NCBI GenBank assembly: GCA_016179745.1
Contig: JACPCP010000008.1
Span: 34,103-98,102, forward strand
Direction of reading: 5' to 3'
DNA from: Candidatus Omnitrophota bacterium
GTDB lineage: Bacteria > Omnitrophota > Omnitrophia > Omnitrophales > JACQLI01
DNA: 64,000 bases
Shown here piece after piece: positions 35,830 to 61,553 of the stretch. A program made the position numbers and the translations under genes. The number at the start of each line of letters is the position of its first letter. Position 1 is the first letter of the stretch. Under the pieces are notes generated by a model, which saw nothing but the letters and a program-made list of their open reading frames with translations, had not been told where the DNA came from and did no database searches.

Positions 35830-36695
35830 TTCAAGACCCCGTCCAGAACCGGTGCCGCCCGGCGAATTTCGACGAGGACCTTCAGTAATTTCTCAAGTTG
35901 GCTGAGCACCAGCATGTTGGTCCCGTCCGAGAGGGCCCGGGCCGGGTTCTCGTGGACCTCCATGAAAAGGGCGTCGCACCCGGAAGCCACGGCGCAGCGG
36001 GCCAGTGTGGGAATGAATTCCGGCCGCCCGGCCGTGGACGTCCCCTCGCCGCCCGGGAGCTGGACCGAATGCGTGGCATCGAAGACCACGGGATAACCCC
36101 ATCCCCGCATAATGGGAATGGCCCGGAAATCGTTCACCAGGTTCTGATAACCAAAGGCAGACCCTCTTTCCGTGATCAAAATTTTCCGGGTCCCGGCCCA
36201 CTCCAGTTTATCGATGATGTTCCGGACCTCCCAGGGCGAAAGAAACTGCCCCTTCTTGACATTCACAATCCGCTTCGTCCGGCCGGCGGCCAGAATCAAG
36301 TCTGTCTGACGGCAGAGAAAGGCCGGGATCTGAAGGATGTCGAGCACCTCTTGGGCGGGGCCGATCTCCTCTCTGCAGTGGACGTCGCTCAAGACGGGAA
36401 CGCCGAATTCTTTTTTCACCCGGGCAAGGATCGCCAGGCCCTTTTTGAGGCCGGGGCCCCGGAAGGACTTCACCGAAGAGCGGTTGGCCTTGTCGTAACT
36501 CGATTTGAAGACAAAAGGAATTTTGAGGCGCCCGGCGATTTTGGAAATTTTCTCGGCGTGAGAAAACGCCATCCGCTCGCCTTCGATCACGCAGGGGCCG
36601 GCGATCAGGACAAAACTCCTCGGATCTCCAAAGCTGATCTTTCCCAGTTTGACGGTATGCATCGTGGTGGTTGGTAGAACGGGACAGGACTTCAC
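35826..36695 (-). CDS. kdsA: 3-deoxy-8-phosphooctulonate synthase
   Basis: FVLIAGPCVIEG, KSSYDKANRSS and DATHSVQLPGG are KdsA motifs. The track start is GTG 36695; ATG 36662 (MHTVKLGKISFG) is an alternative. Confidence 0.93.
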   Translation of the reverse strand: MKSCPVLPTTTMHTVKLGKISFGDPRSFVLIAGPCVIEGERMAFSHAEKISKIAGRLKIPFVFKSSYDKANRSSVKSFRGPGLKKGLAILARVKKEFGVPVLSDVHCREEIGPAQEVLDILQIPAFLCRQTDLILAAGRTKRIVNVKKGQFLSPWEVRNIIDKLEWAGTRKILITERGSAFGYQNLVNDFRAIPIMRGWGYPVVFDATHSVQLPGGEGTSTAGRPEFIPTLARCAVASGCDALFMEVHENPARALSDGTNMLVLSQLEKLLKVLVEIRRAAPVLDGVLK

Positions 36696-36721
36696 CTTCT
36701 CGTTCGAGGGAACGTCAGGGC

Positions 36722-38431
36722 CTAAGTCACCTCGCTCGCAGCCGGGGCTTCGGTCGGCTCTTTTTTGTTCTCCGCCGAAACACGATTCGGAGAATTTTCC
36801 GCCGAAGCGGCCCCGCCCGGCAGATTGTTTTCACGACGGTCGAGGGCGTGCCGGACAAACTCACGGAAGAGCGGGTGGGGCTGGTCGGGTTTGGATTTGA
36901 ATTCCGGGTGGAATTGGCTCGCCACAAACCAGGGATGGTCCTCAAGCTCCACGATCTCCACGAGCTTGCTTCCCGGCGAGAGGCCGGAGAGGCGGAGCCC
37001 TAAACGGCTGAAGGTCTCCCGGTATTTGTTATTGAATTCATAACGGTGGCGGTGGCGCTCCATCACCAGGTCGGCCTGGTAAGCCTCGTAAGCCAGCGTC
37101 TCTTTTTTGAGATGGCAGGGTAAGGCCCCGAGACGCATCGTCCCCCCCAAATCTTTGACGGACTCCTGCTCTTCCAGGAGGCTAATCACAGGGTGGGCGG
37201 TCTTTTTGTTAAACTCCGTGGAGTTGGCGCCTTTGAGCCCGGCCACGTTCCGTGCAAACTCAATCACCGCACACTGCATCCCGAGGCAGAGGCCCAGGTA
37301 GGGAATTTTATTTTCCCGGGCGTATTGAATGGCCTTGATCTTCCCTTCAATCCCCCGGGTGCCGAAACCACCCGGGACCAAAACGCCGTCGACCTCGTGG
37401 AGATGTTTGTCCGGCTTTCCCCGGTCCAGTTTTTCTGCGCTGACCTTCTTGATTTCAACCGCCGTGTCGCTCGCAATTCCGCCGTGGATCAGGGCTTCGT
37501 AGATGGATTTGTAAGCGTCCTGAAGCTGAATGTATTTTCCGACGACGGCGATTTTCACCTTGTGTTTGGGATGCAGGATTTTTTCCACCACGTCCCGCCT
37601 CCATTCGTTCAAGTCGCCAACCCGGTATTCCAGACCGAGCAGGCGTGAGATGACCCGGTCCAGCCCCTGCTCCTTGAAAATGAGCGGGACCTCATAAATG
37701 GAGGAAACATCACGGGCCTCGATCACGGCCTCCGCCTCAAGGTTGCAAAAAAGGCCGATTTTCGCCTTCAAATCCTTGGAGAGTCTTTTTTCGGTGCGGC
37801 AAAGAAGGATGTCCGGCTGAATACCGATTTCCCGCAAACGCCCGACACTGTGCTGGGTGGGTTTGGTTTTTAACTCTCCGGCCGCCCGAATAAAGGGAAC
37901 CAACGTGAGGTGAATAAAAATTGAATTTTCCCGGCCGACCTCTTGGCGGAATTGGCGCACGGCCTCCAGAAAGGGCAGGGATTCAATATCGCCCACCGTC
38001 CCCCCGACCTCAGAAATGACGATGTCGTAACGCTTGCCTTTGGAAACTTCCCGAATCCGGGTTTTGATTTCATCCGTGATGTGCGGAACCACCTGGACGG
38101 TGGCGCCGAGATATTCGCCTTTTCTTTCCTTGCTGATGACGGTGCCGTAGACTTGGCCCGTGGTCACGTTATTCACCCGGCTTAAAACCGAGGAGGTGAA
38201 ACGCTCGTAATGGCCCAGGTCCAAATCCGTCTCGGCCCCGTCCTCCGTCACGTAGACCTCGCCGTGCTGGTAGGGGTTCATGGTCCCGGGATCGACATTG
38301 AGGTAGGGGTCCAATTTTTGCAGGGCGACCTTGAGCCCCTTGGCTTCCATCAAGCGGCCGATGGAAGCGGAGGCGATCCCCTTCCCGAGGGAGGAGACCA
38401 CGCCGCCGGTGATAAAAATGTGTTTAGGCAT
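36722..38431 (-). CDS. pyrG: CTP synthase
   Basis: 569 aa. [21 protein letters not shown], and the glutamine amidotransferase domain with GLCLGMQ. It carries a low-complexity C-terminal tail of about 25 aa. Confidence 0.97.
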
Positions 38432-40392: not shown

Positions 40393-41491
40393 AATTTTTC
40401 CAAAAATTTTTCCGGTCCAGAAATACCTTCACGGCCTCGGGAGGAAGCTCCGTCAGGCATTCCCGGTCCACGCAGGCCGAATTGTAGCGAAAATTCGAGT
40501 AGCACGGCCGGCACGGCAGGTCCCTTCTCATCACCGGGACGGCACGAGGATATGCTGGGAAAGGACCATAAACTTTGGGGTCGGCAGGACCAAAAAGGGC
40601 CACGAGCGGAACATGAAGGGCGTGCGCCAAGTGGACAAGGCCGCCGTCATTGGCAAGGAGGAGCCGGGCCCCCTCCAAAATCGCCGCCGCTACGCCGAGG
40701 GAAACTTCCCCGCAAAGATTGATGACTTTAAAGTCCGGCGGATTTCCCGAATCAGACGCCAAAGTCTGTTCCATTGCTTCGCCGAGACTCCGCTCTCCTT
40801 TGCTTCCCAGGATCACGACCGAGCCGAAATTGACCCGCTTCCGGAATTCCAAAAGGGCCTGGGCAAAATAACAGGCGGGCCAGCGCTTAAAATGGGCGTC
40901 TTTTCCCCAGGACTCCCCGCCGCCCGGTGCTACAGCCAAATAAGATTCATCGGCAGGCCGATGAATCTCCCACGCCCGCTGCCGGTCTTCCTCGGAAACG
41001 TAAAACTCAAGAAAGGGCTCTTCGATCTCAAGACCCACGAGCCGCCCGAGCTCGGCGTAGAATTCGACGACCGAGCGGCCCTCAAATCCCCTCGGCAGAG
41101 AAATGGATTGGGTCAAAAACGTTCCCCGGTGTTTGAAATTAAAACCGATCCTTCTTGGGATCCCAAGAAAGACGCCGCTGTAAAAAGCGGTCTCCCGCTG
41201 GAGCGACAAATCGATCAAAAGGTCGTAGCGGCCTCTGAGTTTTTTCCACCAGAAAAAAATTTCCCTGAGGAGCTCCCTCCTTCCGAGCGAGTGCCACCGG
41301 TCCTTGTCGAGGGTGAAGATTTGGCCGGCGTGAGGGTTATTCCGAAAAATGGCCTCCGTCCGGGAACCGAGCAGAAGATCGACGGACTCGACACTCGGAA
41401 GGGTCCGGAGCGCCCGGAGGAGCGGCGTCGTAAAAAGGGCATCGCCCAGGCCGTAGGGCTGAACGATCAAAACTCGACGGATGGAATTCAT
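40376..41491 (-). CDS. Glycosyltransferase family 9 (heptosyltransferase-like), copy 1
   Basis: 371 aa. RVLIVQPYGLGDALFTTPLLRALR, and the C-terminal LLANDGGLVHLAHALHVPLVALFGP plus a Cys-rich tail. Confidence 0.88.
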   Translation of the reverse strand: MNSIRRVLIVQPYGLGDALFTTPLLRALRTLPSVESVDLLLGSRTEAIFRNNPHAGQIFTLDKDRWHSLGRRELLREIFFWWKKLRGRYDLLIDLSLQRETAFYSGVFLGIPRRIGFNFKHRGTFLTQSISLPRGFEGRSVVEFYAELGRLVGLEIEEPFLEFYVSEEDRQRAWEIHRPADESYLAVAPGGGESWGKDAHFKRWPACYFAQALLEFRKRVNFGSVVILGSKGERSLGEAMEQTLASDSGNPPDFKVINLCGEVSLGVAAAILEGARLLLANDGGLVHLAHALHVPLVALFGPADPKVYGPFPAYPRAVPVMRRDLPCRPCYSNFRYNSACVDRECLTELPPEAVKVFLDRKNFWKNCVNGR

Positions 41492-42518
41492 GCCAAAAAT
41501 TTCACGGCCTTTTTAAAAACATCGTCCACCGAGACCACGTCCAGACACAAAAAATTGATCCGACAGTTGTGGGCCAGACAAACGGGGCAGGCCACCTCTT
41601 TATGAATGACCCTCCCCTCCTCCCCCAAGGGCCCCCAGCGCCTCGGACTGAGGCCGGTCAGGTTCCTCCCGAAAATGGAGATCACCGGCGTGCCAACAGC
41701 CCGAGCCAAATGAACCGGCCCGGAATCGTTTGAAATGAGGAGCCGGGCGCCCTTGAGGAGCCAGCCCAGCAAACCGATCGAAATTTTTCCGCTCAAGTCA
41801 ATACGACCGGAAACCCGAATTTTTCCTGCAGGCGGTCGGCGAGCCGGGCGAAACGCTCGGCGGGCCAGACCTTGGAGGGACAACTGGCGCTCGGGTTCAG
41901 GACCCCGTAAGACCTTGACCCCTCACCCCCACCCTCTCCCCCTCGGGGGGAGAGGGCAAAGGGTGAGGGGGACAAATTCCGAAGTAGAAATTCAAGGGAG
42001 ACACGGTCCCGCTCCTTTAACGGGAAATAGGTCCGGAGTTTTTCCGGCGGTTTGACGTTTAAAAATTTTAAAAGATCGAAGTTGTATTCGGATTCGTGCT
42101 TCAAGCCCTCCCCTTTGCGGTCTTCAATTGTGTGGGTAAGGGCCCACGCATTTTTCTTCCGGTAACCGATTCGGACCGGAATGCCGGCCAGCCAGCTCAC
42201 CCAATGCATCCGGTTCGTCGGGTGGAGGTGGACAACCGTATCAAATCGTTTTTCGGCCAGCCGGCGGGCAAAGCGAAAATTCCCGAACCCGCCCTTCTCG
42301 CCCCCCCGCTTGTCGTAAAGAATCACTTCATCAAGAAAGGGGTTCCCCTCCACGAGCTCCCGGTTTTCCAGAAACGTGAGGCATGCCAAATGGGCTTTCG
42401 GAAATCTGAGACGGAGCGCTTCAAAAACAGGGGTTGAGAGAAGGAGGTCGCCCATTCGGTCCGTGCGGGTGATCAAAATCCGGGAGGGATCCCGGGATTC
42501 AATCAATGCTGGATTCAT
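41488..42518 (-). pseudogene. Glycosyltransferase family 9, copy 2: split by internal deletion and frameshift, and carrying an in-frame palindromic element
   Basis: The N-terminal half is in ORF 41793..42743 (from ATG 42518: MNPALIESRDPSRILITRTDRMGDLLLSTPVFEALR...VWPAERFARLADRLQEKFGFPVVLT-stop). The C-terminal half is in another frame (ORF 41488..41883: IDLSGKISIGLLGWLLKGARLLISNDSGPVHLARAVGTPVISIFG). The ~20-27 aa that paralogs have between VVL-G and the L-x-G-K/E motif are missing. Confidence 0.75.
41902..41979. repeat. Palindromic element, copy 2 (78 bp) inside the GT9 copy-2 reading frame
   Basis: CCCCTCACCC (41919..41928) pairs with GGGTGAGGGG (41961..41970). The inner stem is CCCTCTCCCCC-TCG-GGGGGAGAGGG (41932..41956). 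Flanks ACCCCGT..GACC and GACAAATTC are shared with copy 1. Confidence 0.9.
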
Positions 42519-43437: not shown

Positions 43438-44453
43438 AACTCTTCGCTTTGAATTTTTTTAAAAACTTCTTCGGGGGTCATCCGTTCCATCCACCCCCCT
43501 GCCGGAAGGCTCTTCCCCTTCCAGGGGATTGAGTATCCTTCCGGGACAAATTGAATCACGATCTTTTTCCCCGTGCCCCGGGGCCCGGTCAAACGGGGGC
43601 AGGTCGGGCCAAAGAGCGCCACGACCGGGGTCCCCACGCCGGAAGCGATGTGGAGCGGGCCGGAGTCGCTCGAAACCACAAACCGGGCCTTTTGGTAAAG
43701 CGCCCCCAGCACTTTAAGTGACGTGATTCCACAAATAGAGAGCGGTTTTGAGAAGCGGGAATTCCGCAGAATTTCTTCGGCAATTCCCTCGTCACGGCCG
43801 GAACCGGTCAAGACCATCGGGAGTGAAAAATTCTGAGTGATCAGGTCAGCCAACACCGCAAAGTGAGTCGCCGGCCAGCGCTTCGGCTCCCAATTCGCTC
43901 CGATGTGAAAGACCGCAAAAGGTTTTTCCGCCAATCCCTTTGAGTGGAGAAGATTCAAAGCTTCAGCGTTGTGTTCGGGAGAATAGAAAAATTGATACTC
44001 CGCCCCGAATTTCACCCGGAGGCCGGCCCACTTCAAAAGATAAAGGAAGTAATCCACCTGATGCAAAGGCTTCGAAGGGGTCTCCACCGCACGGGTCAAC
44101 ACCCGCCGGCGTTTCGGTGTCGCAAAACCCACTCGCTCTGGAATTCCCCCGAGGGCCGCCAGGAAGGCCCGGGTGAAGGAACGATGAAAAAGGAAGACCC
44201 GGTCGAATTTCTCCCGCCGGAGCCAGGCAATGAATCGAAGCTTTGCAAAGAGGGACCGTTCCCCCTCCCGTTCATCGAATTCCCGCACTTCGTCAAGGAA
44301 GGGCACGGCCTCCAGAATTTCCCGGCAGCGTCCCGGCGCCAGGGCCGTGATCCGGGCCCCGGGAAAATTTTCCCGGAGGGCCTGGAGGGCCGGCACTTCA
44401 AACAGGACGTCCCCCAGCCAATTTTTGGTGAAGACAAGAATTTTCATGCTCAA
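43395..44453 (-). CDS. Glycosyltransferase family 9 (heptosyltransferase-like), copy 4
   Basis: 352 aa. KILVFTKNWLGDVLFEVPALQALR, HIGANWEPKRWPATHF and VVSSDSGPLHIASGVGTPVVALFGPT. Confidence 0.88.
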   Translation of the reverse strand: MSMKILVFTKNWLGDVLFEVPALQALRENFPGARITALAPGRCREILEAVPFLDEVREFDEREGERSLFAKLRFIAWLRREKFDRVFLFHRSFTRAFLAALGGIPERVGFATPKRRRVLTRAVETPSKPLHQVDYFLYLLKWAGLRVKFGAEYQFFYSPEHNAEALNLLHSKGLAEKPFAVFHIGANWEPKRWPATHFAVLADLITQNFSLPMVLTGSGRDEGIAEEILRNSRFSKPLSICGITSLKVLGALYQKARFVVSSDSGPLHIASGVGTPVVALFGPTCPRLTGPRGTGKKIVIQFVPEGYSIPWKGKSLPAGGWMERMTPEEVFKKIQSEELWRPRKESQSSLSR

Positions 44454-46561
44454 ACCGTCAGGGCCGGCAGGGAGGCGAGGTGTTTCTTCGTGGCCTCGAA
44501 GACTTCGTCAACCTCGATCCGTTTGAGGCAGGCCAAAAACTCCGGGTTTTGACAAACCCCCTTGTAGCACGGCTGACAGGGAAGTCTTTTTACAAAGAGC
44601 GTGGTCTGGGGGCTCGGCACGAGGTGGCGGCGGGGGTCGGTCGGGCCAAAGAGGGCCACCCGTCGAGTGCCGAGGGCACTTGCAATGTGAAGCGGTGCGG
44701 TGTCGCCCGTCACAAGCACCCCCAGCCGACGAATCACGGAGACAAGGTCCCGGAGCGAACTCTTGCCGACCAAGTCGAGGACAGCGTCCGAATCTAAATC
44801 AAAACCCTCCACGAGCGGCCGGTCTTCCGGGGAACCAATCAGGACCACCTTCGAGTCCAGTTCCTTCGTGAGGCGGCGGGCCAGGGCCCGGAAGGATTCG
44901 ATCGGCCAGCGCTTCGTCGGCCAGCGGGGGCTCGAACCGATCACGAGCCCCACCCATTTTCCGTTTTCAGAAAACTTCTTTTCCCCGAACCATTGCGTGA
45001 CAAGCGCCTCCGAGGCCGGGTCCGGCCAAAGCTCCAGCCTCTCCTCCATTTGATTGATCCCCAGGCGGGAAAGCAGGCGGAACTGGTGGCGGATCGGCGA
45101 ATCCATCTCGGTAAAAGTGAAATCCGGGTGGGTCAAAAGTCTCCCAAAGATCCCCCGGCTGAAGCCGTGCCGCTCCGGAATCCCCGCAAGCAGGGCCAGC
45201 AAATGCGTCCGCTTCGTGTTTTGAAAATCAATGGCGAGGTCGAAAGCCTCCCGGCGGAGCCGCTTGGCAAACCGGGCGAGCCAAATCCAGGAACGGGACT
45301 TGCTGCGGTTAAAAAGGAGGATTTCATTCAGATAAGGGCAGCCTGCGAGGACGGCGCTGTAACGCTCATCCACCAGGACGCTGAGGCGGGCAGACGGAAA
45401 TTTTTTTCGGATCATCCGGAGGCTCGGGACGGCCAGGATCACGTCCCCCAAGGCCCCGATTTTGATCACGAGGATGCGCTTCTCTCCCCGGACCTCGTGG
45501 TAAACCTCAAGCGTCTTCTCCGTCATCTGATCGAGCGTAAATTGGGTTTCAACTTTCTTGCGAAGCGCCTGGGCCATTCGACCCGCCTCGTCCCGGTGCG
45601 TGAGCAGGCGTTCCATGGCATCGGCCAGGGCGTCCTCATCCCCGGGCGGCACGAGGAGCCCTTCTTTCCCGTCTTCAATAATGTCCACGACCCCGCCGAG
45701 CCGGGTCGCCACACAGGCGGTTCCCACAGCCCCGGCCTCAATCAAGACCCGGCCGAAAGATTCCGGGACAAGGCTCGAAAGCACCAAAAGATCGGCTTCC
45801 CGCAAAAGTTCCGGAATGTCCCGGCGGGTGCCGAGCATTTTCACATTTCTCTCAAGCCCCAGCCGGACCACGGTCCGCTCAATTTCACGGGTGTATTTCG
45901 TCTTCCCTTCCCCTTCGGAGCCCACCAGCCAGGCCTCGACCGGAAGTCCCCGCTCCCGAAGCCGGTGAACCGCACGGAGGAATTCCACCTGTCCCTTGAT
46001 CGGTGAAAAACGGCCCACGTTCAAAATTCGAAAAACCTTGGTCGTCTTCAAATATTTTTCGGAATGAAAAGTGAACCGGCTCAAATCGACTCCCCGGGGA
46101 ATTAAAACAATGCGGTCCGGCGGGACCCCGAAATCATCGATCATGTGACGGGCCATGACTTCGGAAGGAACGATGACTCTTTTTCCCCAGCCCATCACCC
46201 GGCTCAAAAAATGATTGGAATAATAACCGTGGCAAGTGGTCACGAGGGGGACGCCGGCCTTCCGGGAGGCCAGCCAGACAATCCAGGCCGGCACCCGGCT
46301 CCGGGCGTGCACCACGTCCACCCGTTCCTTTTGAATGATTTCCACAAGCCGGGGCACAAGGAAAAGGCTGAAAAGGGATTTCCGGTCCACGGGCAGGGAA
46401 TAATGAGGGATCCCCTCTTTTTGAAGTTCCTGGGCGAGGGCGCCGCCCGCTGAAACAACGACCGACTCCTCTCCCCGGCCCTTGAGGGCCCGGACGAGGT
46501 CCGCTACGCCCCGTTCTACGCCGCCCAGTTCCAGACGGGGAAGGATTTGTAAAATTTTCAC
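44450..46561 (-). CDS. Bifunctional glycosyltransferase: N-terminal GT4 (GT-B, group 1) fused to C-terminal GT9 (copy 5)
   Basis: 703 aa. Residues 1-~358 are GT4-like (MKILQILPRLELGGVERGVADL, ESFGRVLIEAGAVGTACVATRLGGVVDII.DGKEGLLV). Residues ~360-703 are GT9-like (RILVIKIGALGDVILAVPSLRMIR, SSPRWPTKRWPIESF, VTGDTAPLHIASALG). The domain junction is near nt 45484. Confidence 0.85.
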   Translation of the reverse strand: MKILQILPRLELGGVERGVADLVRALKGRGEESVVVSAGGALAQELQKEGIPHYSLPVDRKSLFSLFLVPRLVEIIQKERVDVVHARSRVPAWIVWLASRKAGVPLVTTCHGYYSNHFLSRVMGWGKRVIVPSEVMARHMIDDFGVPPDRIVLIPRGVDLSRFTFHSEKYLKTTKVFRILNVGRFSPIKGQVEFLRAVHRLRERGLPVEAWLVGSEGEGKTKYTREIERTVVRLGLERNVKMLGTRRDIPELLREADLLVLSSLVPESFGRVLIEAGAVGTACVATRLGGVVDIIEDGKEGLLVPPGDEDALADAMERLLTHRDEAGRMAQALRKKVETQFTLDQMTEKTLEVYHEVRGEKRILVIKIGALGDVILAVPSLRMIRKKFPSARLSVLVDERYSAVLAGCPYLNEILLFNRSKSRSWIWLARFAKRLRREAFDLAIDFQNTKRTHLLALLAGIPERHGFSRGIFGRLLTHPDFTFTEMDSPIRHQFRLLSRLGINQMEERLELWPDPASEALVTQWFGEKKFSENGKWVGLVIGSSPRWPTKRWPIESFRALARRLTKELDSKVVLIGSPEDRPLVEGFDLDSDAVLDLVGKSSLRDLVSVIRRLGVLVTGDTAPLHIASALGTRRVALFGPTDPRRHLVPSPQTTLFVKRLPCQPCYKGVCQNPEFLACLKRIEVDEVFEATKKHLASLPALTV

Positions 46562-48507
46562 GAGAGCAGGCCCTCCAGTTTCTCCCGGATCTCATTCCGC
46601 TCTCTTTTGAGGAATTCACCGGCTGGGACCCGCCGGATTTTTCCCAATGTGGCCGCAAGTTCGCCCACCGAAACTACGGGGACGCCCCAATCTTTTTTCA
46701 AACTTTCCTGAAAACGGGTGTGCTTTCGGGGAAGCCCGTCCGAACTCATTTTCACCACGACCACAGCTTTTCCGGAACTCACGGCCTCTGAGATCATCGA
46801 AAGGCTGTCTTCGGTCACAATCAAAAAATCCGCCAGGGCCATCATCCCGGGAACGACTTCCGGACGGCGGTCCTGGGAAGCGATGACACAAAGCTGGCAG
46901 CGGGAATTCTCATTCAGTTGTTCCTGAAGAAACCTGCAGATTTTTTCCGGTGTCCGGCGGCTGGTCGTCACAAGGTAATCCCCGGCAGCGGCCTCACTCG
47001 CCTGTTCCATCTGACGAATCAAGTTTTCCACCTCCGGGAGCAAAAGCTTGAAGCCCCGGGTTTCGCCTCCCAGAAAAAGACCCAGCCGGACCCTCTCCGG
47101 ATTTGGGAGCGACCCGATGAGTTTTCGTTTTGAACTCTCAAGCGCTTCCGGCCCCGCCGGGCTCAAGGCCCCTTGGATCCGGACCGTGCCCCGGGGCAGA
47201 AGCCCCCGGTCGTGGAAAGGCACCAAGGCCAGATCGTAACGGAAAAGGTTGAAGGGGAAGCCGGGTTTCATGACGACCACGGATTTCGAAAGATTTTCCC
47301 GCCCGAGACAAAGATTGAGCGGCACGAGGCGGGTCCCGGCCGAGATGACGATGTCCGGATTCACCTGTTCGATCCTTTCGGCGCATTCGGGAGTCAGAAA
47401 AAACCGGAGCCGGCGAAGCCGCCCCTGGGCCCACGGCATAAAGAAAAGGGCAAAAACCGGAAACAGGCGCCGGCGCCACTTTGAGGCAAACCGGACCTCC
47501 ACCGTTTCCGCCAAAATTTCATAGGGAGGGGCGGCCTTCCCGCCGACGGCCCGGATTTCCTCCAGAAGCGTCTCGGATTGCTTCACGTGGCCCGGCTTCC
47601 CGTCGGAAAGCAGAACGATCCTTTGGGTCCGGTTCCTTTTCCAACGCTTGTGGCCCCAGAGCCACTGCGAAGGATAACGGGCCAGAGTCGATTCCAAAAT
47701 TTCGATGTAGCGCTGGGTGTTGATTTCAATGTCCTTTTCATAATCGCCTGTGCGGACCAGCTCCAGGGCGTCGGGCCTGAAATAAAGATCGTGGCAAGGC
47801 CCCTTTCGCCGGACCATAAAAACCGGCAGCACGGGCACGCCGAACTTCAAGGCCAAGGCCATCGGACCCCGGGGGGCCGTCGTGAGGCGCCCAAAAAACC
47901 GCACCCAGACTCCGTTCTTTCCTCCCGATTGGTCCCCCAAAACTCCGACCGAACCGCCCTGGCGCAGGGTGCGGATCAAATCCCGGATCCCGGACCCCTT
48001 GTCCACCGCACGGGAACCGTAATACTGACGAAAGGAGCTCAAAAGCCGGTCCAACTGCTTGTGTTTCTGCCGGCGGGTCAGCACGGTCATCGGCCGCCCC
48101 CGGAGCCCCTCGGCAATTTGCGAGAGCTCCCAATTGCCCAAGTGCGCCGTCAAAAGAATCAAACCCCTTCCGGATTGTCGAAGTTCGAGATAGTTTTCAT
48201 AACCGTGGTTCGTCACGTAACGATTGATTTCGGATTCGCTCAAGACCGGAACCCTCATGATCTCAACGCCCGACATCCCAAGGTGTTCAAAAAGTTCCCG
48301 GGTCCACTGTTTCCGCTCCCGGGGAGCGCTGTGAGGAAAGGCGGCCTTGAGGTGGGTGTAAGCGACCCGGCGGCGCCGGCTGAAAAAATGGACCGCTCTT
48401 CCGATAGCCCGGCCCAGGGCCAGCGAAGTTTCCAACGGGAGGCGGCGAACCCAAAAGGCAATGAGACGGAGCGTCCAATAGCCCGTCCCGTCTAAAAAGG
48501 CGTCCAC
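46558..48507 (-). CDS. Fusion protein: N-terminal LpxL-type lipid A acyltransferase plus C-terminal ELM1/DUF1022-like (GT-B-like) domain
   Basis: 649 aa. Residues 1-~295 have LLTAHLGNWEL (H-x4-E) and YPSQWLWGHKRWK. Residues ~296-649 have RIVLLSDGKPGHVKQ, LVTTSRRTP and LIVTEDSLSMISEAVSSGKAV, hallmarks of the ELM1 family. The junction is near nt 47622. Confidence 0.8.
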   Translation of the reverse strand: MDAFLDGTGYWTLRLIAFWVRRLPLETSLALGRAIGRAVHFFSRRRRVAYTHLKAAFPHSAPRERKQWTRELFEHLGMSGVEIMRVPVLSESEINRYVTNHGYENYLELRQSGRGLILLTAHLGNWELSQIAEGLRGRPMTVLTRRQKHKQLDRLLSSFRQYYGSRAVDKGSGIRDLIRTLRQGGSVGVLGDQSGGKNGVWVRFFGRLTTAPRGPMALALKFGVPVLPVFMVRRKGPCHDLYFRPDALELVRTGDYEKDIEINTQRYIEILESTLARYPSQWLWGHKRWKRNRTQRIVLLSDGKPGHVKQSETLLEEIRAVGGKAAPPYEILAETVEVRFASKWRRRLFPVFALFFMPWAQGRLRRLRFFLTPECAERIEQVNPDIVISAGTRLVPLNLCLGRENLSKSVVVMKPGFPFNLFRYDLALVPFHDRGLLPRGTVRIQGALSPAGPEALESSKRKLIGSLPNPERVRLGLFLGGETRGFKLLLPEVENLIRQMEQASEAAAGDYLVTTSRRTPEKICRFLQEQLNENSRCQLCVIASQDRRPEVVPGMMALADFLIVTEDSLSMISEAVSSGKAVVVVKMSSDGLPRKHTRFQESLKKDWGVPVVSVGELAATLGKIRRVPAGEFLKRERNEIREKLEGLLS

Positions 48508-48524
48508 GGCGTCCCGCCCCTCCT

Positions 48525-49565
48525 TTAGTTCACTCCGAGCAGGCGGAAAATGCGGTCATTCAGGATTTCTTCGCCCGCCGAGATCTGAAGCCGGGCGGCC
48601 AGGACCAGGGGATTTAAAACCTCGCTGATCACCTGCGGGGCCCGGTAGAAATCCTTCTCGGTCGTCACAATTTCGTCGACCTCGCTTGCCTGACTCACCC
48701 GCCGGATTTCTTCAAGCTCCTCTTTCTTAAAGGCATGATGGTCGCAGAATTCGAAGTTGCGGACGGGGCGGATCCCGAGATGGGAAAGGAGCAGCTGGAA
48801 GGAACGGGGATGGCCGAGGGCCGAGAAGGTGGCGACCCGGCGGTTCCCGAGGCGGTCGAGCGGCACCCGGGTCCGCTGCTTCGAGCGGTAAAAAAACAGC
48901 GGCTCAAAGTAAGACTCCGTGACGGTTGCGTTCGGCGCCAATTTGTGAATTTCTGCCCTGAGACACTCCAATTCCTTGGGCCCCACCAAGTTGGCGTGGG
49001 ACAGCACAATCACACTGGCCCGGCGAAGGGCCCCGAGAGGCTCCCGCAAAATGCCCCGGGGGAAAAGTTTTCCGTTTCCGAAGGGGTTCAGGGAATTCAC
49101 GGTGAGAATTTCCACGTCCCTCTGGATTTTCCAATGCTGGAATCCGTCATCAAGGATCGCCACGTGGATCCGTTCCCGGCGGCTCATGCCCCGTGCCACT
49201 TCGTATCTTTCTTTGCCGACCCCGATCCGGGCGCCGGGCAGGTGGCTTCGAAACTGTTCCACCTCGTCCGAGTTGTAGCCCCGGGTCAGGATGAGCGGGG
49301 TCTTTCCCCGTTCGAGGACCCGCCGGGCGAGGTATTCCACAAGCGGGGTCTTTCCGGTCCCGCCCCACGTCAGATTGCCGACGCTGATCACGGGGAAGGG
49401 CAGTCTCCTTCTCGGGAAAATCCCGTGGCCATAGAAGGCCTTCATCAGACCGACGCCGGCGCCGTAAAGAGCACTGACCCCCGAAAGAAGAGGTTTCAAA
49501 ACGTGAGGGGACAGGCCGACTTGACGGTCTTCGGCCAACAATCGAAAGTAATTTTTAACCGACAT
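48525..49565 (-). CDS. lpxK: Tetraacyldisaccharide 4'-kinase
   Basis: 346 aa. VISVGNLTWGGTGKTPLVEYLARR (P-loop) and ILDDGFQH. Confidence 0.93.
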   Translation of the reverse strand: MSVKNYFRLLAEDRQVGLSPHVLKPLLSGVSALYGAGVGLMKAFYGHGIFPRRRLPFPVISVGNLTWGGTGKTPLVEYLARRVLERGKTPLILTRGYNSDEVEQFRSHLPGARIGVGKERYEVARGMSRRERIHVAILDDGFQHWKIQRDVEILTVNSLNPFGNGKLFPRGILREPLGALRRASVIVLSHANLVGPKELECLRAEIHKLAPNATVTESYFEPLFFYRSKQRTRVPLDRLGNRRVATFSALGHPRSFQLLLSHLGIRPVRNFEFCDHHAFKKEELEEIRRVSQASEVDEIVTTEKDFYRAPQVISEVLNPLVLAARLQISAGEEILNDRIFRLLGVN

Positions 49566-50871
49566 GAGCAGGCACTCCTTTGGTTGTTTTCAAAAAGGGT
49601 TCAATGAAATGAAGGTTTCGCTGGGTGGCGCCCCGAAGCTTCTCCAAAACTTCGAACGCCCGGCGGCCCATCGTTTGCCGCTCCGCCCGGTTGGGAAGAA
49701 TCCGCTTCAGGGTGAGAATGAGCTGGGGTTCTCCGTCGATCCTGAGACTTCCTCCCGCCTCGCCGAGCCGTTGGTAGAGCTCCTCAAAATTGAAGACCCA
49801 GGGACCGTGTAACAGGGCCCGGCCTGTGACGGCCGGCTCCGCCGGGTTCTGCCCGCCGTGAGGGACAAAGCTTCCCCCCATCACCACGACATCAGCGGCA
49901 AGATAAAGTTTCCGAAGTTCTCCGAGTTTGTCGAGAATCAAGACATCGTAGGAGGGCGGGGACGGGGCCGCTTCGCTCATCAGGATTCCCCGGAAACCCT
50001 CCCGCCGGACTTCCTCCAAAATCCGGCGTGACCGCTCAACGTGGCGGGGCGCCAAAACAAGTTTGAGCGGGACCCGTTCCTCCCGGAGAAGGCGGAGGAC
50101 CCGGAGGAGCATCTCGTCTTCCCCGGGGTGCGTGCTCCCCCCCATCAAAACCTGATCGGTCGCTTGAATCCCCCAAGCCTCCCGAAGGGGTTCCCGCTCC
50201 TTTTCCCGGTGCCCCTCCCAATCCAGGGCATCCAGTTTCATATTTCCCGTCACGGTGACTTTCTCAGGCGAGACCCCCAACTCCACCCACCGGGCCCGGT
50301 TCTTCTCTGTCTGGACAAGAAAAAAGGTCACCGACTTAAAGACAGGGGCGAAAATCCAGTGGAAGCGCTTGAAGGCCCGAAAAGATTTTTCGGAGAGGCG
50401 CCCATTCACAATCCCCACCGGAATTCCCCGGGTCCGGGCCTCCCGAATCACATTGGGCCAAATTTCGGTTTCGACGAGGAGGAGGAGTTTCGGTTTGAAG
50501 GTCTGAAAAAACCGGCGCACGGCAAAGCGGAAATCAAAGGGAAAATAGAAAACGCTCAGGCGCCCGCTCTCCCAGGATTTGGCAATCCGCTGACCGGTGG
50601 GGGTCACCGTGGTCAGAACCACTTGAAGCCCCGGCCGTTCTTTGAGAAGGAGGTGAAGGAACTTCTCGACGGCGAGGACTTCCCCCACGCTCACCGCATG
50701 GACCCAGACCGGGTGTTGGGTCCGGAACCGGGAGACCGTCTCCCGGGGAAAAATCCCGAGCCTCTCCTTCACCGAACGGACCGGGTCGTCTGCCTGCCCG
50801 AGCCGCTTGAGAAAGTGAGGAAGCGAAAAAAAGGCAAAGAGAAAAAATCCAAAGTTATAAATCCAACGCAT
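49555..50871 (-). CDS. waaA: 3-deoxy-D-manno-octulosonic acid (Kdo) transferase
   Basis: 438 aa. N-terminal anchor, VWVHAVSVGEV, ETEIWPN and GGSFVPHGGQNPAEPA are WaaA/KdtA motifs. Confidence 0.93.
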   Translation of the reverse strand: MRWIYNFGFFLFAFFSLPHFLKRLGQADDPVRSVKERLGIFPRETVSRFRTQHPVWVHAVSVGEVLAVEKFLHLLLKERPGLQVVLTTVTPTGQRIAKSWESGRLSVFYFPFDFRFAVRRFFQTFKPKLLLLVETEIWPNVIREARTRGIPVGIVNGRLSEKSFRAFKRFHWIFAPVFKSVTFFLVQTEKNRARWVELGVSPEKVTVTGNMKLDALDWEGHREKEREPLREAWGIQATDQVLMGGSTHPGEDEMLLRVLRLLREERVPLKLVLAPRHVERSRRILEEVRREGFRGILMSEAAPSPPSYDVLILDKLGELRKLYLAADVVVMGGSFVPHGGQNPAEPAVTGRALLHGPWVFNFEELYQRLGEAGGSLRIDGEPQLILTLKRILPNRAERQTMGRRAFEVLEKLRGATQRNLHFIEPFLKTTKGVPAHVG

Positions 50872-50879
50872 GGTTCCCG

Positions 50880-51770
50880 CTAAGCCCGGGGGTGCGCCCG
50901 GTGATAAGCCTCCTGAAGACGCCGTGTCGTCACGTGCGTATAAATTTGTGTCGTCGAAAGGTTCGCATGCCCGAGAAGTTCCTGGACGCTCCTCAGGTCT
51001 GCCCCCCGGTCCAGCATGTGGGTCGCAAAGGTGTGGCGCAGGGTGTGTGGTGAAATCCCCTTCTTTAAAGAAATCTGTCTCGCATACTTTAGAATCAGGC
51101 GCCGGACACTCCGGTCCGTCAGCCGGGTCCCGGACCGGTTCAGGAAAAGGGGGTGGCTCAATTCATCGGATTTCCGGCCGGCCGGGAGGGCCTCCAGGTA
51201 ATCCCGGAGGGACCCCAGCGCCTTTTCGCCGATGGGAACGATCCTTTCCTTTTTCCCCTTGCCCCGGATCTTCACAAGGCCGCTCAAAAGATCCAAGTCG
51301 CCCCGGTTGAGGCCCACGAGTTCGCTGACACGGACTCCGGAGCTGTAAAGCGTCTCCAGGATCGAACGGTCCCGCTTCCCCTCCCAATTTTTTCCGGAGG
51401 GGGCCTCCAGGAGATGGGTGATTTCGCCCAGATCGAGAAAGCGGGGCAGTTTCTTGTCCCGTTTCGGCGTGCTGATCCCCAGGACGGGGTTCGCCTGAAG
51501 CTGCTTTTCCCGGGCCAGGAACTTGAAAAAAGACCGGAGCGCCGCCAGCTTTCGGGAAAGGGTTGCCTTCGAACAGCCTCTCGATTTGACCTGCGTGAGA
51601 AAGCTTCGGATCAAGAGCGGATCGACTTCGCTCGTCTTTCTCGTGCCTAGAAACTGAAAAAATTCCCTGAGGTCGGCCCCGTAATTTTTGATCGTGTGGG
51701 GCGAAGCGCCCCGTCCTGCTTCCAAATACTCGAAAAATTGCCGGACCGACGGGTCCATCCTAGACTCCAT
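50880..51770 (-). CDS. xerC: Tyrosine recombinase XerC/XerD family
   Basis: 296 aa. N-terminal SAM-like domain, catalytic R...HTLRHTFATHML..GADLRSVQELLGHANLSTTQIYTHV with the Tyr. Assignment to XerC versus XerD is not secure. An alternative start is ATG 51758. Confidence 0.85.
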   Translation of the reverse strand: MESRMDPSVRQFFEYLEAGRGASPHTIKNYGADLREFFQFLGTRKTSEVDPLLIRSFLTQVKSRGCSKATLSRKLAALRSFFKFLAREKQLQANPVLGISTPKRDKKLPRFLDLGEITHLLEAPSGKNWEGKRDRSILETLYSSGVRVSELVGLNRGDLDLLSGLVKIRGKGKKERIVPIGEKALGSLRDYLEALPAGRKSDELSHPLFLNRSGTRLTDRSVRRLILKYARQISLKKGISPHTLRHTFATHMLDRGADLRSVQELLGHANLSTTQIYTHVTTRRLQEAYHRAHPRA

Positions 51771-54036
51771 TCGCCTCGGGGGGCTTCTCCTCCTCAGCCA
51801 CGGTCTCCTTGTCTCTCGGGAGCCGCCGGGTGACGTAAGTGCACTTGGGATAATTGGAACAGCCGTAAAAGGTCTGCCGGCGCTTTGACTTCCGTTTCAC
51901 CAGATCCCCGTTACAGCCGGGCTGGGGACACCGAAACCCCGTCGGCATGGATTTTGTGTAGCGGCAGGCCGGGAAACCCGAACAGGCCAAAAATTGCCCG
52001 AACCGCCCCCAACGGATGAGCATCTGTTTTCCGCAGAGGTCGCAGACCTCGTCCGTCGGAACGGCCTCCCGGCGGACACTCCGCATTTCGACTTTGGCAT
52101 CCGCCAAATACTTTGAGAAGGGTTCGTAGAAATCCTTGAGAACGGAATGCCATTCGAGCTCCCCCTCTTCAATCTTGTCGAGTTCCTCTTCCATTAAGGC
52201 CGTGAATTGATAATCCAGGATTTTGGGAAAATGTTTGACAAGGAGATCGACCACAATCTCCCCCAGCTCCGTGGGCACGAGGGCGCCTTTCCGCTCCACG
52301 TAGGAACGGTCGATCAGGACATAGATCGTGGGGGCATAGGTGCTGGGCCGTCCGATGCCCTTTTCCTCCAGTGTCCTGACGAGGCTGGCATCGTTGAAAC
52401 GGGCGGGCGGCTTCGTGAAGTGCTGGCTTGCCAGAAGCTCGTGCAGGCGAAGCGCCTCTCCTTCCGCAAGCGGCGGGAGCTCCTGGCTCTCCTCATCCTC
52501 CTCCGAAGATTCGTCCTCCTTCTCGGACTTTTCCGGAATCTCGAAAACAATTCCAAACCCCGGGAACAAATTCCGCCTCCCGCTCGCCCGGAAGAAATAA
52601 CGGTCCCCCGCCTGAATCGTGACGGAGGTCTGCTCGTCAATCGCCGGGACCATTTGGGAGGCGACAAACTTTCTCCAGATCAATTCATAAAGTTTGAATT
52701 CATCTTCATCGAGAAAGCCTTTGATTTTTTCGGGCAGTCTCAAAACGGAGCTGGGCCGGACGGCCTCGTGGGCCTCCTGCGCCCCCTTCTTGGATTTGTA
52801 GACCGGCGGGGCCTTGGGAAGAAACTTGGGTCCGTATTTTTCACCGATCCATTTCCGGGCCTCAGCCTGGGCCGACGGGGCGACATTGACCGAATCGGTC
52901 CTCATGTAGGTAATGAGACCCACGGCCTCGTCGGAGCCGAGCTCCACGCCTTCGTAAAGTTTCTGCGCAACCTTCATGGTCTTGGCGGCCGTGAAACCGA
53001 GACGGGTATAGGCCTCCTGCTGGAGACGGCTCGTGGTGTAGGGGGCCTGCGGCTTCCGGAGCCTTTCCTTTTTCTCGACCTTGAGGACCTGAAAGGGAAG
53101 TTTTTCGATCCGGGATTTGATTTCCTCGGCTTCTTTTTGATTGCCGATCTCGAGCTTCTTCTCGCCTTCCCGGTCGAGACGGGCGAGAAAAATCTTGGCG
53201 TCCTCACCGCCCTTTTCGGAAGAAAGCCGGGCCCGGATCTGCCAATACTCTTTGGGGACAAACTGGCGGATCTCCCGCTCCCTTTCGACAATCAGGCGAA
53301 GGGCCACGGACTGGACCCGGCCGGCGCTCAAGCCCTTCCCGACATTTTTCCAAAGAAGGGGGCTCAGCTCGTAGCCCACCAATCGGTCGAGGACCCGCCG
53401 GGCCTGCTGGGCATTGACCAGCTTGTCATCAATTTCACGGGGGTGTTTGAAGGCCTCCCGGACGGCGTCGGGAGTGATTTCGTTGAAAACGACCCGGTGG
53501 ATTTTTCCGTCGGTCTCGCCGTGAAGAATCGCCGCCAGGTGCCAGCTGATGGCCTCTCCCTCCCGGTCCGGGTCCGGGGCCAGGTAGACGGCCTTTTTCC
53601 CCTTGGCTTCCTTTTTGATCCGGGTCACGGTCTTTTTGGCTTTGGTCATGATGACATAGTCGGGTTTGAATTCGTGCTCAAGGTCAATCCCCATCCGTCC
53701 CTTGGGAAGGTCCCGGACATGGCCCATCGAGGCCTCAATCTGGTAGGCGGGCCCGAGGTAACGCAGGAGGGTCCTGGCCTTGGTGGGTGATTCCACAATC
53801 ACAAGGTTCTCCGCCCCTCCCTTGCCTCCCCCGACGAAATGAACCACCTCGATCTCATCTCCCTCTTCGACCGTGACCCGGTCAAATTCCTCCCGGGGAA
53901 TGACCTGGCGGTTCCGTTCGACCACGACGGAGCGGGGGTCCATCTGGAAGGATTGGAGGAGTCCGGTGACTGTGGTAAGCGGGTTGATCCGTCTTGCTTC
54001 GCCGTTCAACCGGAGCTGGATAAAGCCTGTTTTCAT
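51760..54036 (-). CDS. topA: DNA topoisomerase I with an in-frame N-terminal ThiS-like beta-grasp domain
   Basis: Toprim start LVIVESPTKARTLLRYLG, the type IA core (YMRTDS active-site Tyr region) and C-terminal zinc ribbons (CDLCG.., CPQPGC..). The frame stays open upstream through a ThiS-like segment to ATG 54036; the track start 54054 is a TTG. Confidence 0.93.
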   Translation of the reverse strand: MKTGFIQLRLNGEARRINPLTTVTGLLQSFQMDPRSVVVERNRQVIPREEFDRVTVEEGDEIEVVHFVGGGKGGAENLVIVESPTKARTLLRYLGPAYQIEASMGHVRDLPKGRMGIDLEHEFKPDYVIMTKAKKTVTRIKKEAKGKKAVYLAPDPDREGEAISWHLAAILHGETDGKIHRVVFNEITPDAVREAFKHPREIDDKLVNAQQARRVLDRLVGYELSPLLWKNVGKGLSAGRVQSVALRLIVEREREIRQFVPKEYWQIRARLSSEKGGEDAKIFLARLDREGEKKLEIGNQKEAEEIKSRIEKLPFQVLKVEKKERLRKPQAPYTTSRLQQEAYTRLGFTAAKTMKVAQKLYEGVELGSDEAVGLITYMRTDSVNVAPSAQAEARKWIGEKYGPKFLPKAPPVYKSKKGAQEAHEAVRPSSVLRLPEKIKGFLDEDEFKLYELIWRKFVASQMVPAIDEQTSVTIQAGDRYFFRASGRRNLFPGFGIVFEIPEKSEKEDESSEEDEESQELPPLAEGEALRLHELLASQHFTKPPARFNDASLVRTLEEKGIGRPSTYAPTIYVLIDRSYVERKGALVPTELGEIVVDLLVKHFPKILDYQFTALMEEELDKIEEGELEWHSVLKDFYEPFSKYLADAKVEMRSVRREAVPTDEVCDLCGKQMLIRWGRFGQFLACSGFPACRYTKSMPTGFRCPQPGCNGDLVKRKSKRRQTFYGCSNYPKCTYVTRRLPRDKETVAEEEKPPEANGV
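53824..54036 (-). other. ThiS/MoaD-type sulfur-carrier-like domain (71 aa, ends VGGG) forming the N-terminus of the topA ORF
   Basis: MKTGFIQLRLNGEARRINPLTTVTGLLQSFQMDPRSVVVERNRQVIPREEFDRVTVEEGDEIEVVHFVGGG has ThiS length and motif pattern. There is no stop codon before KGGAEN-LVIVESPTKA. Confidence 0.8.
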
Positions 54037-54126
54037 TCGGGGGATTCTATTCAAATAGTCGGAACATGTAAAGAAAAGTTTATCGGACGCACTAAGAATA
54101 GTCTTAACTTGTTTTAATTCTTTACC

Positions 54127-56201: not shown

Positions 56202-57200
56202 TCATGCGACGGTCTGGCGCTCGAGAACCTGCGAGCGATACCAATCAAGGGTCTTCACGATCCCCTCCTCCAGGGTAATCTTGGGCGACCATCCGTAAAG
56301 CGATCGGGCCCGGTCGATATTGAGCTTCAAGCTGAAGGGGATGCTGGGTTTTTTCCGGTCGAACTCGACCTTTAAATTTTTCCCGGAATGTTTGATGATT
56401 TTTGCCACGAGGTCCCGGACGGCGATGGATTCGCCGGAACCCACGTTGATCAATTCAAAACCGCATTCCTGGGAGGCCACCGCCTTTTCCACAAAGGCCG
56501 TCAAATCGTCGACGTGAAGAAGGTCCCTCTCCTCAACCCCCTCGCCCCAAACCGTCACCTTCCCGTGGTCCGGGGCCGCCATCACCTTGGCCACGGTCGC
56601 CCCAAACACGTGGGACCTTTCCGCATCATATTTGTCAAAGGGGCCGTAAATATTGGAGTGGCGGATGACCGTAAACCGGGTCGGGCCAATCTTTGAGTAA
56701 AACTCGCACATCTTCTCGATATAAATCTTGGTCCAGCCGGCGCCAAAATAGGGCCCGGCCATTTGGTAATTAAAATCCGACTCCTGGACCGGCCCTTTTG
56801 CGCCCGGGGGATACACCACCGTGCAGCTAAAAAAAACAAAGCGCTCCACGTGGTTTTCGTGGCAGGAGCGCAGGATGAGAGAATTCATCACCGCATTGTC
56901 GGTCACGTGATGGTGGGGTGCGGCCAAAATCTCCCGGGCCCCCGAGGTCGTGGCGGCCGCCTGAATCACAATCTCCTTGCCCTGGACCGCCCGGTCGACC
57001 TGGGCCGGGTCCGTCAAATCCGCCTGAAGGAACGTCACCCGCCCGTCATTCCGAAGTTGGGCCGGCGGCGGGGTCCGGTGGTAGGTGCCGGTTATTTCAA
57101 ATTCTTCCTTTTTGAGAAAATGGCCCAGCAGATTCCTTCCGATAAACCCTGTGGCGCCGCACAACAAAACTTTTTTCCGTGGCTTAGACGAAGACATCAT
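56202..57200 (-). CDS. NAD-dependent sugar epimerase/dehydratase (extended SDR)
   Basis: From ATG 57200: KKVLLCGATGFIGRNL (Rossmann), with YFGAGWTK in the catalytic Y-x3-K position. About 330 aa. Confidence 0.85.
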   Translation of the reverse strand: MMSSSKPRKKVLLCGATGFIGRNLLGHFLKKEEFEITGTYHRTPPPAQLRNDGRVTFLQADLTDPAQVDRAVQGKEIVIQAAATTSGAREILAAPHHHVTDNAVMNSLILRSCHENHVERFVFFSCTVVYPPGAKGPVQESDFNYQMAGPYFGAGWTKIYIEKMCEFYSKIGPTRFTVIRHSNIYGPFDKYDAERSHVFGATVAKVMAAPDHGKVTVWGEGVEERDLLHVDDLTAFVEKAVASQECGFELINVGSGESIAVRDLVAKIIKHSGKNLKVEFDRKKPSIPFSLKLNIDRARSLYGWSPKITLEEGIVKTLDWYRSQVLERQTVA

Positions 57201-61544: not shown

Positions 61545-61553
61545 CTTTGAACC

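Follow-up and report, generated by a model that had tools for sequence, protein, structure and literature searches.

An LpxL-type acyltransferase fused to a KdoT/ELM1-like glycosyltransferase in Omnitrophota, a predicted bifunctional enzyme of lipopolysaccharide assembly

In Acinetobacter baumannii, the PF06258 family protein A1S_2903 (GtrOC1) was first found to be required for addition of a third residue of 3-deoxy-D-manno-oct-2-ulosonic acid (Kdo) (mBio 2024, PMC10936431). The protein was later purified and named KdoT; it is a CMP-Kdo:Kdo2-lipid IVA KdoIII transferase (JBC 2025, PMC12856342). KdoT is a glycosyltransferase (GT) of the GT-B type with an invariant SRRT motif, in which R180 is needed for activity, and the mutants D8A, H13A, H109A, and D110A are without phenotype (PMC12856342). 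The purified enzyme is inactive on Kdo-free lipid IVA and prefers tetra-acylated over hexa-acylated acceptors, and the GT4 enzyme GnaT acts after it in the pathway (PMC12856342). KdoT homologs from A. nosocomialis and A. calcoaceticus complement a ΔkdoT mutation, and a distant homolog from Rickettsia is likewise a KdoIII transferase (PMC12856342). Here we describe a gene in which a domain of this family is joined to an LpxL-type acyltransferase. It lies in a 64,000-nucleotide stretch of a Candidatus Omnitrophota genome (GenBank assembly GCA_016179745.1, contig JACPCP010000008.1, positions 34,103 to 98,102 of the forward strand), which we call the window and whose positions are used throughout, with (-) for the minus strand. 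An earlier note on this DNA had pointed out the fusion and called the bacterial ELM1 family uncharacterized, a description outdated by the characterization of A. baumannii KdoT in 2024-2025.

The fusion gene (46558..48507, -) is an open reading frame (ORF) of 649 amino acids (aa) that starts with GTG, with a Shine-Dalgarno sequence, AGGAGG (48519..48524, -), 11 nt upstream. The Pfam model PF03279 (Lip_A_acyltrans) matched residues 11-291 with 171.2 bits against a cut-off of 22.3 (E = 3.7e-50), and PF06258 (Mito_fiss_Elm1) matched residues 305-606 with 160 bits against a cut-off of 27 (E = 9.9e-47). Scores so far above the cut-offs bear out the proposal that an LpxL-type acyltransferase is fused to a GT-B domain of the ELM1/DUF1022 family. 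The motifs quoted in support of that proposal were all found in place: HLGNWE at residue 122, YPSQWLWGHKRWK at 278, SDGKPGH at 301, TSRRT at 515, and VTEDSLSMISEA at 564.

The two halves are not separate genes joined by error. The identical 649-aa single ORF is present in two independent Logan assemblies (L001 and L002), and more than 300 homologs carry the fusion. The linker between the domains (residues 281-296, QWLWGHKRWKRNRTQR; 47620..47667, -) is of fixed length and nearly invariant in an alignment of 99 fusions, with no insertion or deletion within residues 286-300. In these sequences R288 and K290 are invariant, and conservation is 90% or higher at K287, W289, T294, K295, and R296. The presence of the fusion in so many homologs, together with the constant length of the junction and the invariance of the putative catalytic residues in each half, leads us to conclude that it is genuine and not an assembly artifact. 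The AlphaFold2 (AF2) model of the full-length protein, which has a mean predicted local distance difference test (pLDDT) score of 94.5 and a predicted template modeling (pTM) score of 0.91, suggests that the two domains have a defined mutual orientation.

The C-terminal domain (residues 296-649 and the stop codon; 46558..47622, -) is assigned to the KdoT/ELM1/GtrOC1 family of GT-B glycosyltransferases by PF06258, BLASTP, hhalign, and AF2. As KdoT references, we translated four native A. baumannii stretches from the primer table of PMC12856342, and we located whole kdoT genes in genome contigs by their 5′ primer sequence, which was matched in A. nosocomialis, A. calcoaceticus, and A. seifertii and had no exact match in A. 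baumannii. BLASTP aligned residues 296-644 of the fusion with residues 2-292 of the 294-aa A. calcoaceticus/A. nosocomialis KdoT (25% identity, 66 bits). Profile-profile comparison with hhalign upheld the relationship to Acinetobacter KdoT (99.9% probability, E = 9e-31) and no other that was tried: the probability was 0.1% for Escherichia coli LpxB, 0.1% for GT9, and 1.3% for the window's own WaaA. The WaaA model PF04413 also had no match on the fusion.

All motifs of the C-domain are in register with those of KdoT. Three of the primer-derived KdoT segments have counterparts in the window protein, namely RIVLLSDGKPGHVKQSETL for MHIVYVSDGKAGHRSQALG, ALVPFHDRGLLP for AVIPEHDGIPA, and YLVTTSRRTPEK for ILTTSRRTPAE, with TTSRRTP at residues 514-520; the fourth, RVATYLLAKN, is the KdoT C terminus. 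In the alignments, SDGKPGH (residues 301-307; 47587..47607, -) is the equivalent of KdoT SDGKAGH, which contains D8 and H13, and H432-D433 (47209..47214, -) is the equivalent of H109-D110. Similarly, TSRRT (residues 515-519; 46951..46965, -) corresponds to the KdoT SRRT motif with R179 and R180 (PMC12856342), and VTEDSLSMISEA (residues 564-575; 46783..46818, -) to VTEDSVSMIYEA. Across about 370 C-domains, there is no or almost no variation at D302, G306, H307, H432, D433, G480, S516, R517, R518, S568, M571, and E574; of these, D302, H307, H432, D433, S516, R517, R518, S568, M571, and E574 are also invariant in the 99 fusions. S516, R517, and R518 are invariant in all architectures in which the ELM1-like module was found. 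By these comparisons, the C-domain is a full-length homolog of functional Acinetobacter KdoT proteins.

Because the GT-B alignments from a fold search with the model of the whole protein were smeared, the C-domain was modeled on its own for Foldseek. This model has a GT-B fold with a pLDDT of 95.7. Its structural neighbors, examined as the best 50 of 115 hits with E ≤ 0.001, were generic (MurG, GT1, GT4, and UDP-N-acetylglucosamine (UDP-GlcNAc) 2-epimerases, with template modeling (TM) scores of about 0.45-0.54), and neither LpxB nor WaaA was among them. Single-sequence and profile searches of the PDB found no sequence relative of the C-domain. As a separate observation, the best Foldseek E-values belonged to accessory chains of about 500 aa in the respiratory complex I of Tetrahymena thermophila (8b6f_A0 and 8gym_T1). 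This match is at the level of fold only, with no sequence match, and may be of interest in tracing the eukaryotic, mitochondrial side of ELM1.

The N-terminal domain (residues 1-295; 47623..48507, -) has the fold of the LpxL/LpxM/PatA acyltransferases of the LPLAT superfamily, as indicated by PF03279, Foldseek, and a profile search of the PDB. The top Foldseek matches in the PDB were A. baumannii LpxM (5KN7/5KNK, E = 7e-14) and mycobacterial PatA, and target-normalized TM scores against the solved LpxM and PatA structures ranged from 0.69 to 0.86. In the profile search, LpxM (5KN7) was matched with E = 3e-27, compared to 1.5e-16 for PatA. The HLGNWE motif (residues 122-127; 48127..48144, -), which contains the putative HX4E catalytic dyad H122/E127, aligned with LpxM HFGTWE, the motif that holds the catalytic Glu mutated in 5KNK (E127A variant). 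H122, G124, W126, and E127 are invariant in the 99 fusions. A second LpxL-type acyltransferase, encoded as a standalone gene (33923..34846, -), is 33% identical to the N-domain and also contains HLGNWE. The organism is thus predicted to have two late acyltransferases, the N-domain of the fusion and this paralog, a number common among Gram-negative bacteria.

The fusion gene is embedded in genes for lipopolysaccharide (LPS) synthesis. Immediately upstream is lpxK (48525..49565, -), which encodes the tetraacyldisaccharide 4′-kinase (PF02606, E = 2e-66; TIGR00682 above cut-off), and two genes upstream is waaA (49555..50871, -), which encodes the GT30 Kdo transferase (PF04413, E = 5e-61; NF004388, E = 2e-102). 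Directly downstream is a gene for a bifunctional GT4+GT9 glycosyltransferase of about 700 aa (44450..46561, -; Pfam), whose GTG start overlaps the stop codon of the fusion (GTGA). This operon is kept at three loci that encode fusions 38-46% identical to the window protein, in the order topA-xerC-waaA-(transporter)-lpxK-fusion-GT4+GT9-GT4/GT9 genes. Heptose-pathway genes and kdsB-kdsA lie further downstream in two of the three.

Related loci revealed other architectures of the ELM1-like module. At one, a standalone ELM1-like gene occupies the same slot, between lpxK and the GT4+GT9 gene (P0122). Metagenomic contigs encode LpxK-ELM1 fusions of about 680-720 aa (P0169, P0173, P0192 at L017 1784-3940, and P0206), and a further protein of 736 aa is a GT9-ELM1 fusion (P0194 at L018 4116-6326); all of these fusions were verified with Pfam. 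Whether the ELM1-like gene was fused to LpxL, LpxK, or GT9 or stood alone, the GT4+GT9 gene directly followed it in every architecture seen (in relatives, L014 11938-14076, L015 11974-14124, L016 10533-12641, L017 4030-6108, and L018 6366-8426). The GT4+GT9 protein, too, is a conserved LPS enzyme of two domains. What stays constant is an ELM1-like glycosyltransferase with a GT4-containing enzyme after it, an order that parallels, by analogy, that of KdoT and GnaT.

The partner that varies is in each case an enzyme of the stage that leads from lipid IVA through Kdo2-lipid A to heptosylation. The substrate of the module can thus be placed at that stage without recourse to the Acinetobacter biochemistry. 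Fusion to LpxL, LpxK, and GT9 therefore provides independent Rosetta-stone support for bacterial ELM1-like proteins as lipid A-proximal core glycosyltransferases, a family now seen fused in at least three separate ways to enzymes of lipid A and inner-core synthesis. Separately, we noted three proteins named as Nitrospirae heptose-1,7-bisphosphate phosphatases (P0369, P0371, and P0372), which are GmhB-like members of the haloacid dehalogenase (HAD) class fused to a PF03279 LpxL-type domain. These are another LPS-enzyme fusion that involves LpxL.

The fusion is widespread in Omnitrophota. Among the matches listed by a word-indexed search were 120 clusters (at 90% identity), all with both Pfam domains and with identities down to 38%; every one of these that carried an organism name was from Candidatus Omnitrophica/Omnitrophota. 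When the C-domain alone was used as the query, an exhaustive HMMER search gave 2904 clusters (50% identity) at E ≤ 0.001; the best 150 were mainly about 650 aa long and had the domain at approximately residues 296-650. A search seeded with a highly divergent fusion, whose C-domain is 28% identical, again recovered Omnitrophota, together with one record labeled "PVC group." Both domains were present in 309 of the 372 relatives that were fetched, and the fusion extends across the phylum at identities reaching down to about 29-35%. A tblastn search of plasmids yielded just two partial Pseudomonas matches, annotated as ELM1/GtrOC1 family. Databases give the fusion proteins automated names such as "mitochondrial fission ELM1 family protein," "ELM1/GtrOC1 family putative glycosyltransferase," and "KDO2-lipid IV(A) lauroyltransferase," and our literature searches found no description of an LpxL-ELM1 fusion or of LPS biosynthesis or chemistry in Omnitrophota. 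The KdoT glycosyltransferase family is thus a core, phylum-wide component of the LPS operon in a distant and mostly uncultivated group.

Taken together, the homologies and the gene context make it very probable that the protein is a bifunctional late acyltransferase and KdoT-family inner-core glycosyltransferase. The best explanation in full, which we hold to be probable with less assurance, is an LPS-assembly enzyme with two functions, acylation and glycosylation of Kdo-lipid A intermediates, most likely with Kdo as the sugar. Taken by itself, the assignment of Kdo as the transferred sugar, which is made by homology, is at best slightly favored. That the ELM1-like domain acts on lipid A or Kdo2-lipid A had been argued in the earlier note, and the Kdo2-lipid A suggestion is now backed by biochemistry on the homolog KdoT.

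The protein would most likely work on the cytoplasmic side of the inner membrane and take as its substrate what LpxK and WaaA produce. LpxK would generate lipid IVA, and WaaA would add Kdo. The N-domain of the fusion, using the dyad H122/E127, would place a secondary ("late") acyl chain onto Kdo-lipid IVA, presumably from acyl-acyl carrier protein (acyl-ACP). The C-domain would glycosylate this same lipid in its Kdo region with a sugar of the inner core. Judging from the homology to A. baumannii KdoT, an extra Kdo from CMP-Kdo would be the most likely sugar, and the SRRT arginines R517 and R518 may position the donor. The translationally coupled GT4+GT9 enzyme and then the GT9 heptosyltransferase-like enzymes encoded downstream would extend the core. 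The rigid, conserved junction would ensure a 1:1 stoichiometry and could tether a peripheral glycosyltransferase beside an enzyme that binds the same amphipathic substrate. The proposal predicts non-WaaA inner-core glycosylation, possibly with a third Kdo, in Omnitrophota LPS, and a naturally tethered two-enzyme protein would offer a structural and mechanistic handle on the ordering of late acylation and core extension.

Several points weigh against this proposal. Both activities, the acceptor and the position modified on it, the donor sugar, and any channeling are predictions drawn from homology and context, and our literature searches found no LPS structure from Omnitrophota. The N-domain scored under all 17 NCBIfam equivalog cut-offs (the best, NF006270, gave 141.9 bits against 248), so that it can be called LpxL/LpxM-type but not a specific ortholog. 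The fusion N terminus lacks a clear transmembrane helix, with a Kyte-Doolittle maximum of 0.89 over 19 aa; the family has a median of 1.36, and a value of 1.6 is reached in only 21 of 99 members. The membrane anchor that had been suggested for this protein is therefore poorly supported as a classical transmembrane helix. N-terminal helices are present in the full-length AF2 model, and from the sequence, monotopic or amphipathic membrane association is more likely than a classical transmembrane helix. The C-domain is only about 25% identical to KdoT, and therefore donor and acceptor specificity cannot safely be transferred from one to the other. Four further PF06258 proteins (GtrOC14, 19a, 19b, and 22) are encoded in the variable outer-core part of A. 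baumannii OC loci. A paralog in A. seifertii, described next, scored nearly as well as KdoT in tblastn to the window C-domain (55 bits compared to 56 bits).

This second PF06258 protein of A. seifertii NIPH 973 (347 aa; L007 6255..7298, +) is encoded about 1.8 kb downstream of kdoT. It retains TDGKAGH and TTSRRT, is weakly similar to KdoT, and is probably an outer-core protein of the GtrOC14/19/22 type. Given the outer-core PF06258 proteins and this paralog, the family is probably not uniformly Kdo-specific. The HD motif was rejected as a discriminator between KdoT and the paralog: MAFFT suggested that the paralog had lost it, and hmmalign places "HE" there.

These observations bear most directly on an alternative that we regard as possible and clearly less probable, in which the bifunctional architecture and the class of substrate are the same and the C-domain adds to the Kdo region of the inner core a sugar that is not Kdo, such as a hexose, hexuronic acid, or heptose, or else provides a second Kdo that complements a monofunctional WaaA. 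The nearly equal distance of the window domain from KdoT and from the A. seifertii paralog in tblastn and the low identity to KdoT are both consistent with it. However, the C-domain profile scored 212 against KdoT and 149 against the paralog, although this comparison of a 10-sequence profile with a single sequence is not like-for-like, and window residues E566-D567-S568 match the "EDS" of KdoT rather than the "PDS" of the paralog. The gene's location also argues for Kdo: it follows waaA and lpxK directly, the first core glycosyltransferases come after it, and the same string contains genes for CTP synthase, KdsA, and KdsD. Moreover, the sole characterized member of the family and its distant Rickettsia homolog are both KdoIII transferases (PMC12856342).

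A second alternative concerns the N-domain, which might resemble PatA or lysophospholipid acyltransferases in function and acylate another glycolipid or a lysophospholipid, with the fusion acting on that lipid. PatA structures match the domain about as well as LpxM does, and all of its NCBIfam matches, which include models for phosphatidylinositol mannoside (PIM) and lysophospholipid acyltransferases, are below cut-off. Yet models for lipid A lauroyl acyltransferases rank highest in NCBIfam, and among PDB sequences LpxM is matched best, by the margin in E-value given above. In every genome examined, the gene lies between lpxK/waaA and the core glycosyltransferases, and the fusion partner is homologous to an enzyme that acts on Kdo2-lipid IVA. 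We therefore consider this alternative improbable.

Still less probable is a non-catalytic role for the ELM1-like domain, as an adaptor or regulator that recruits or controls the acyltransferase or neighboring enzymes. Plant ELM1 has been described as an adaptor for DRP3A (cited in PMC10936431), and the KdoT mutations D8A, H13A, H109A, and D110A had no phenotype (PMC12856342). Against this stand the catalytic activity of purified KdoT (PMC12856342), the invariance, in the roughly 370 domains, of the arginines in SRRT and of some dozen residues in the cleft, and the intact GT-B fold of the C-domain model.

Finally, the idea that the ELM1-like domain is an LpxB-related disaccharide synthase that replaces a missing lpxB, or that it adds a phosphate substituent, is hardly credible, since the LpxB reading has only the shared GT-B fold and the lack of lpxB from the window in its favor and failed every test applied (sequence, with no match to the LpxB model PF02684; profile; and structural neighbors), KdoT needs Kdo on its acceptor, the neighboring LpxK requires the product of LpxB, and the phosphate idea is without support. 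The lack of lpxB at this locus was confirmed for the 64-kb window, in which about 55 ORFs were scanned for PF02684 and E. coli LpxB found no tblastn match. It carries no weight, however, because lpxA is equally absent, with no tblastn match to E. coli LpxA in the window. The early lipid A genes are presumably encoded elsewhere in the genome.

Returning to the favored explanation, a bifunctional acyltransferase and glycosyltransferase of Kdo-lipid A intermediates, we can also imagine a bolder version of it, which we think unlikely. The ELM1-like glycosyltransferase and the GT4(+GT9) enzyme might form an ancient, mobile "inner-core starter" cassette that was welded independently onto LpxL, LpxK, or GT9, with the Omnitrophota fusion as a machine with two active sites. 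If so, late acylation would be coupled to the first non-WaaA core glycosylation, by substrate channeling or as a quality checkpoint before export, and the C-domain might install a sugar or linkage new to any inner core.

In the window, the operon is tightly packed on the minus strand, in the order topA, a xerC/D-like recombinase gene, waaA, lpxK, the fusion, GT4+GT9, and four GT9 genes. After these four heptosyltransferase-like genes come genes for a DUF3108 protein, a heptose-7-phosphate kinase (RfaE domain I), pyrG, kdsA, and kdsD, and then the second LpxL paralog and an LptC/LptA-like gene. The genes kdsA (35826..36695, -) and kdsD (34846..35829, -) were above the NCBIfam cut-offs. Together with pyrG, which encodes CTP synthase, they span 34846..38431 (-) and would supply precursors of CMP-Kdo, apparently as part of the same minus-strand gene string; kdsB was not found among the approximately 55 ORFs scanned in the window. 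The neighbors listed in the earlier note, namely lpxK, waaA, kdsA, kdsD, the second LpxL homolog, and the downstream glycosyltransferases, were all as it had them.

Several other features of the window were noted. One GT9 gene (41421..42518, -; L001 7168-8265) has 68 nt fewer, at about 41794..41799, than in the L001 assembly, and the resulting frameshift splits this 365-aa gene into two ORFs. The frameshift reflects either a strain-level pseudogene or an assembly collapse in the metagenome-assembled genome (MAG). The topoisomerase I (51760..54054, -) has an N-terminal ThiS-like (ubiquitin-fold) domain at residues 15-77; the same ThiS-topA fusion is present at L015, and at L014 a separate 66-aa ThiS gene lies just upstream of topA. 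Directly downstream of the second LpxL gene, a 317-aa ORF (33042..33995, -) contains LptC and LptA/LptD_N-like domains. At 58155..63486 (-) are genes for a B12-binding radical S-adenosylmethionine (SAM) enzyme, a GT2 glycosyltransferase, a short-chain dehydrogenase/reductase (SDR), and a split transketolase-like/E1 pair, adjoined by two genes for NAD-dependent sugar epimerases/dehydratases (56202..58152). This cluster may be a sugar-modification cassette.

Among known systems, KdoT is the closest to the C-domain. The two share PF06258, the GT-B fold, an LPS-core gene context, and a GT4 enzyme that comes next functionally or genetically, as well as the motifs SDGKxGH, MKP, HD, LGG, TTSRRTP, and VTEDSxSMIxEA. 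They differ in length and in architecture: insertions make the window domain about 55 aa longer (130 residues from D to HD compared to 101 in KdoT, and 85 from HD to RR compared to 70), and it is joined covalently to an LpxL-type acyltransferase, in contrast to the standalone, 35-kDa KdoT. The hosts also differ, as the fusion belongs to Omnitrophota and KdoT to Proteobacteria. The N-domain resembles LpxL, LpxM, and PatA in PF03279, the aligned HX4E dyad, the fold, and a location in a lipid A operon. Unlike LpxL and LpxM, it has a 354-aa glycosyltransferase at its C terminus and no clear N-terminal transmembrane helix. LpxB (GT19) has in common with the C-domain the GT-B fold class and the lipid A pathway, and differs in the step at which it acts. 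WaaA (GT30) acts at the same stage as that proposed for the C-domain, adding Kdo to lipid IVA or Kdo2-lipid A, as does the E. coli KdoIII transferase WaaZ. WaaA and WaaZ are functional analogs of the C-domain and not members of its family. Plant ELM1 shares PF06258 with the C-domain; its role is that of a eukaryotic adaptor for which no catalytic function is known, and it has no bearing on an LPS operon in bacteria. The Omnitrophota protein thus combines two known enzyme types in one polypeptide and is not a new kind of enzyme. To our knowledge, KdoT has so far been reported solely in Acinetobacter and Rickettsia; the fusion extends this very recent finding taxonomically and leaves current understanding in place.

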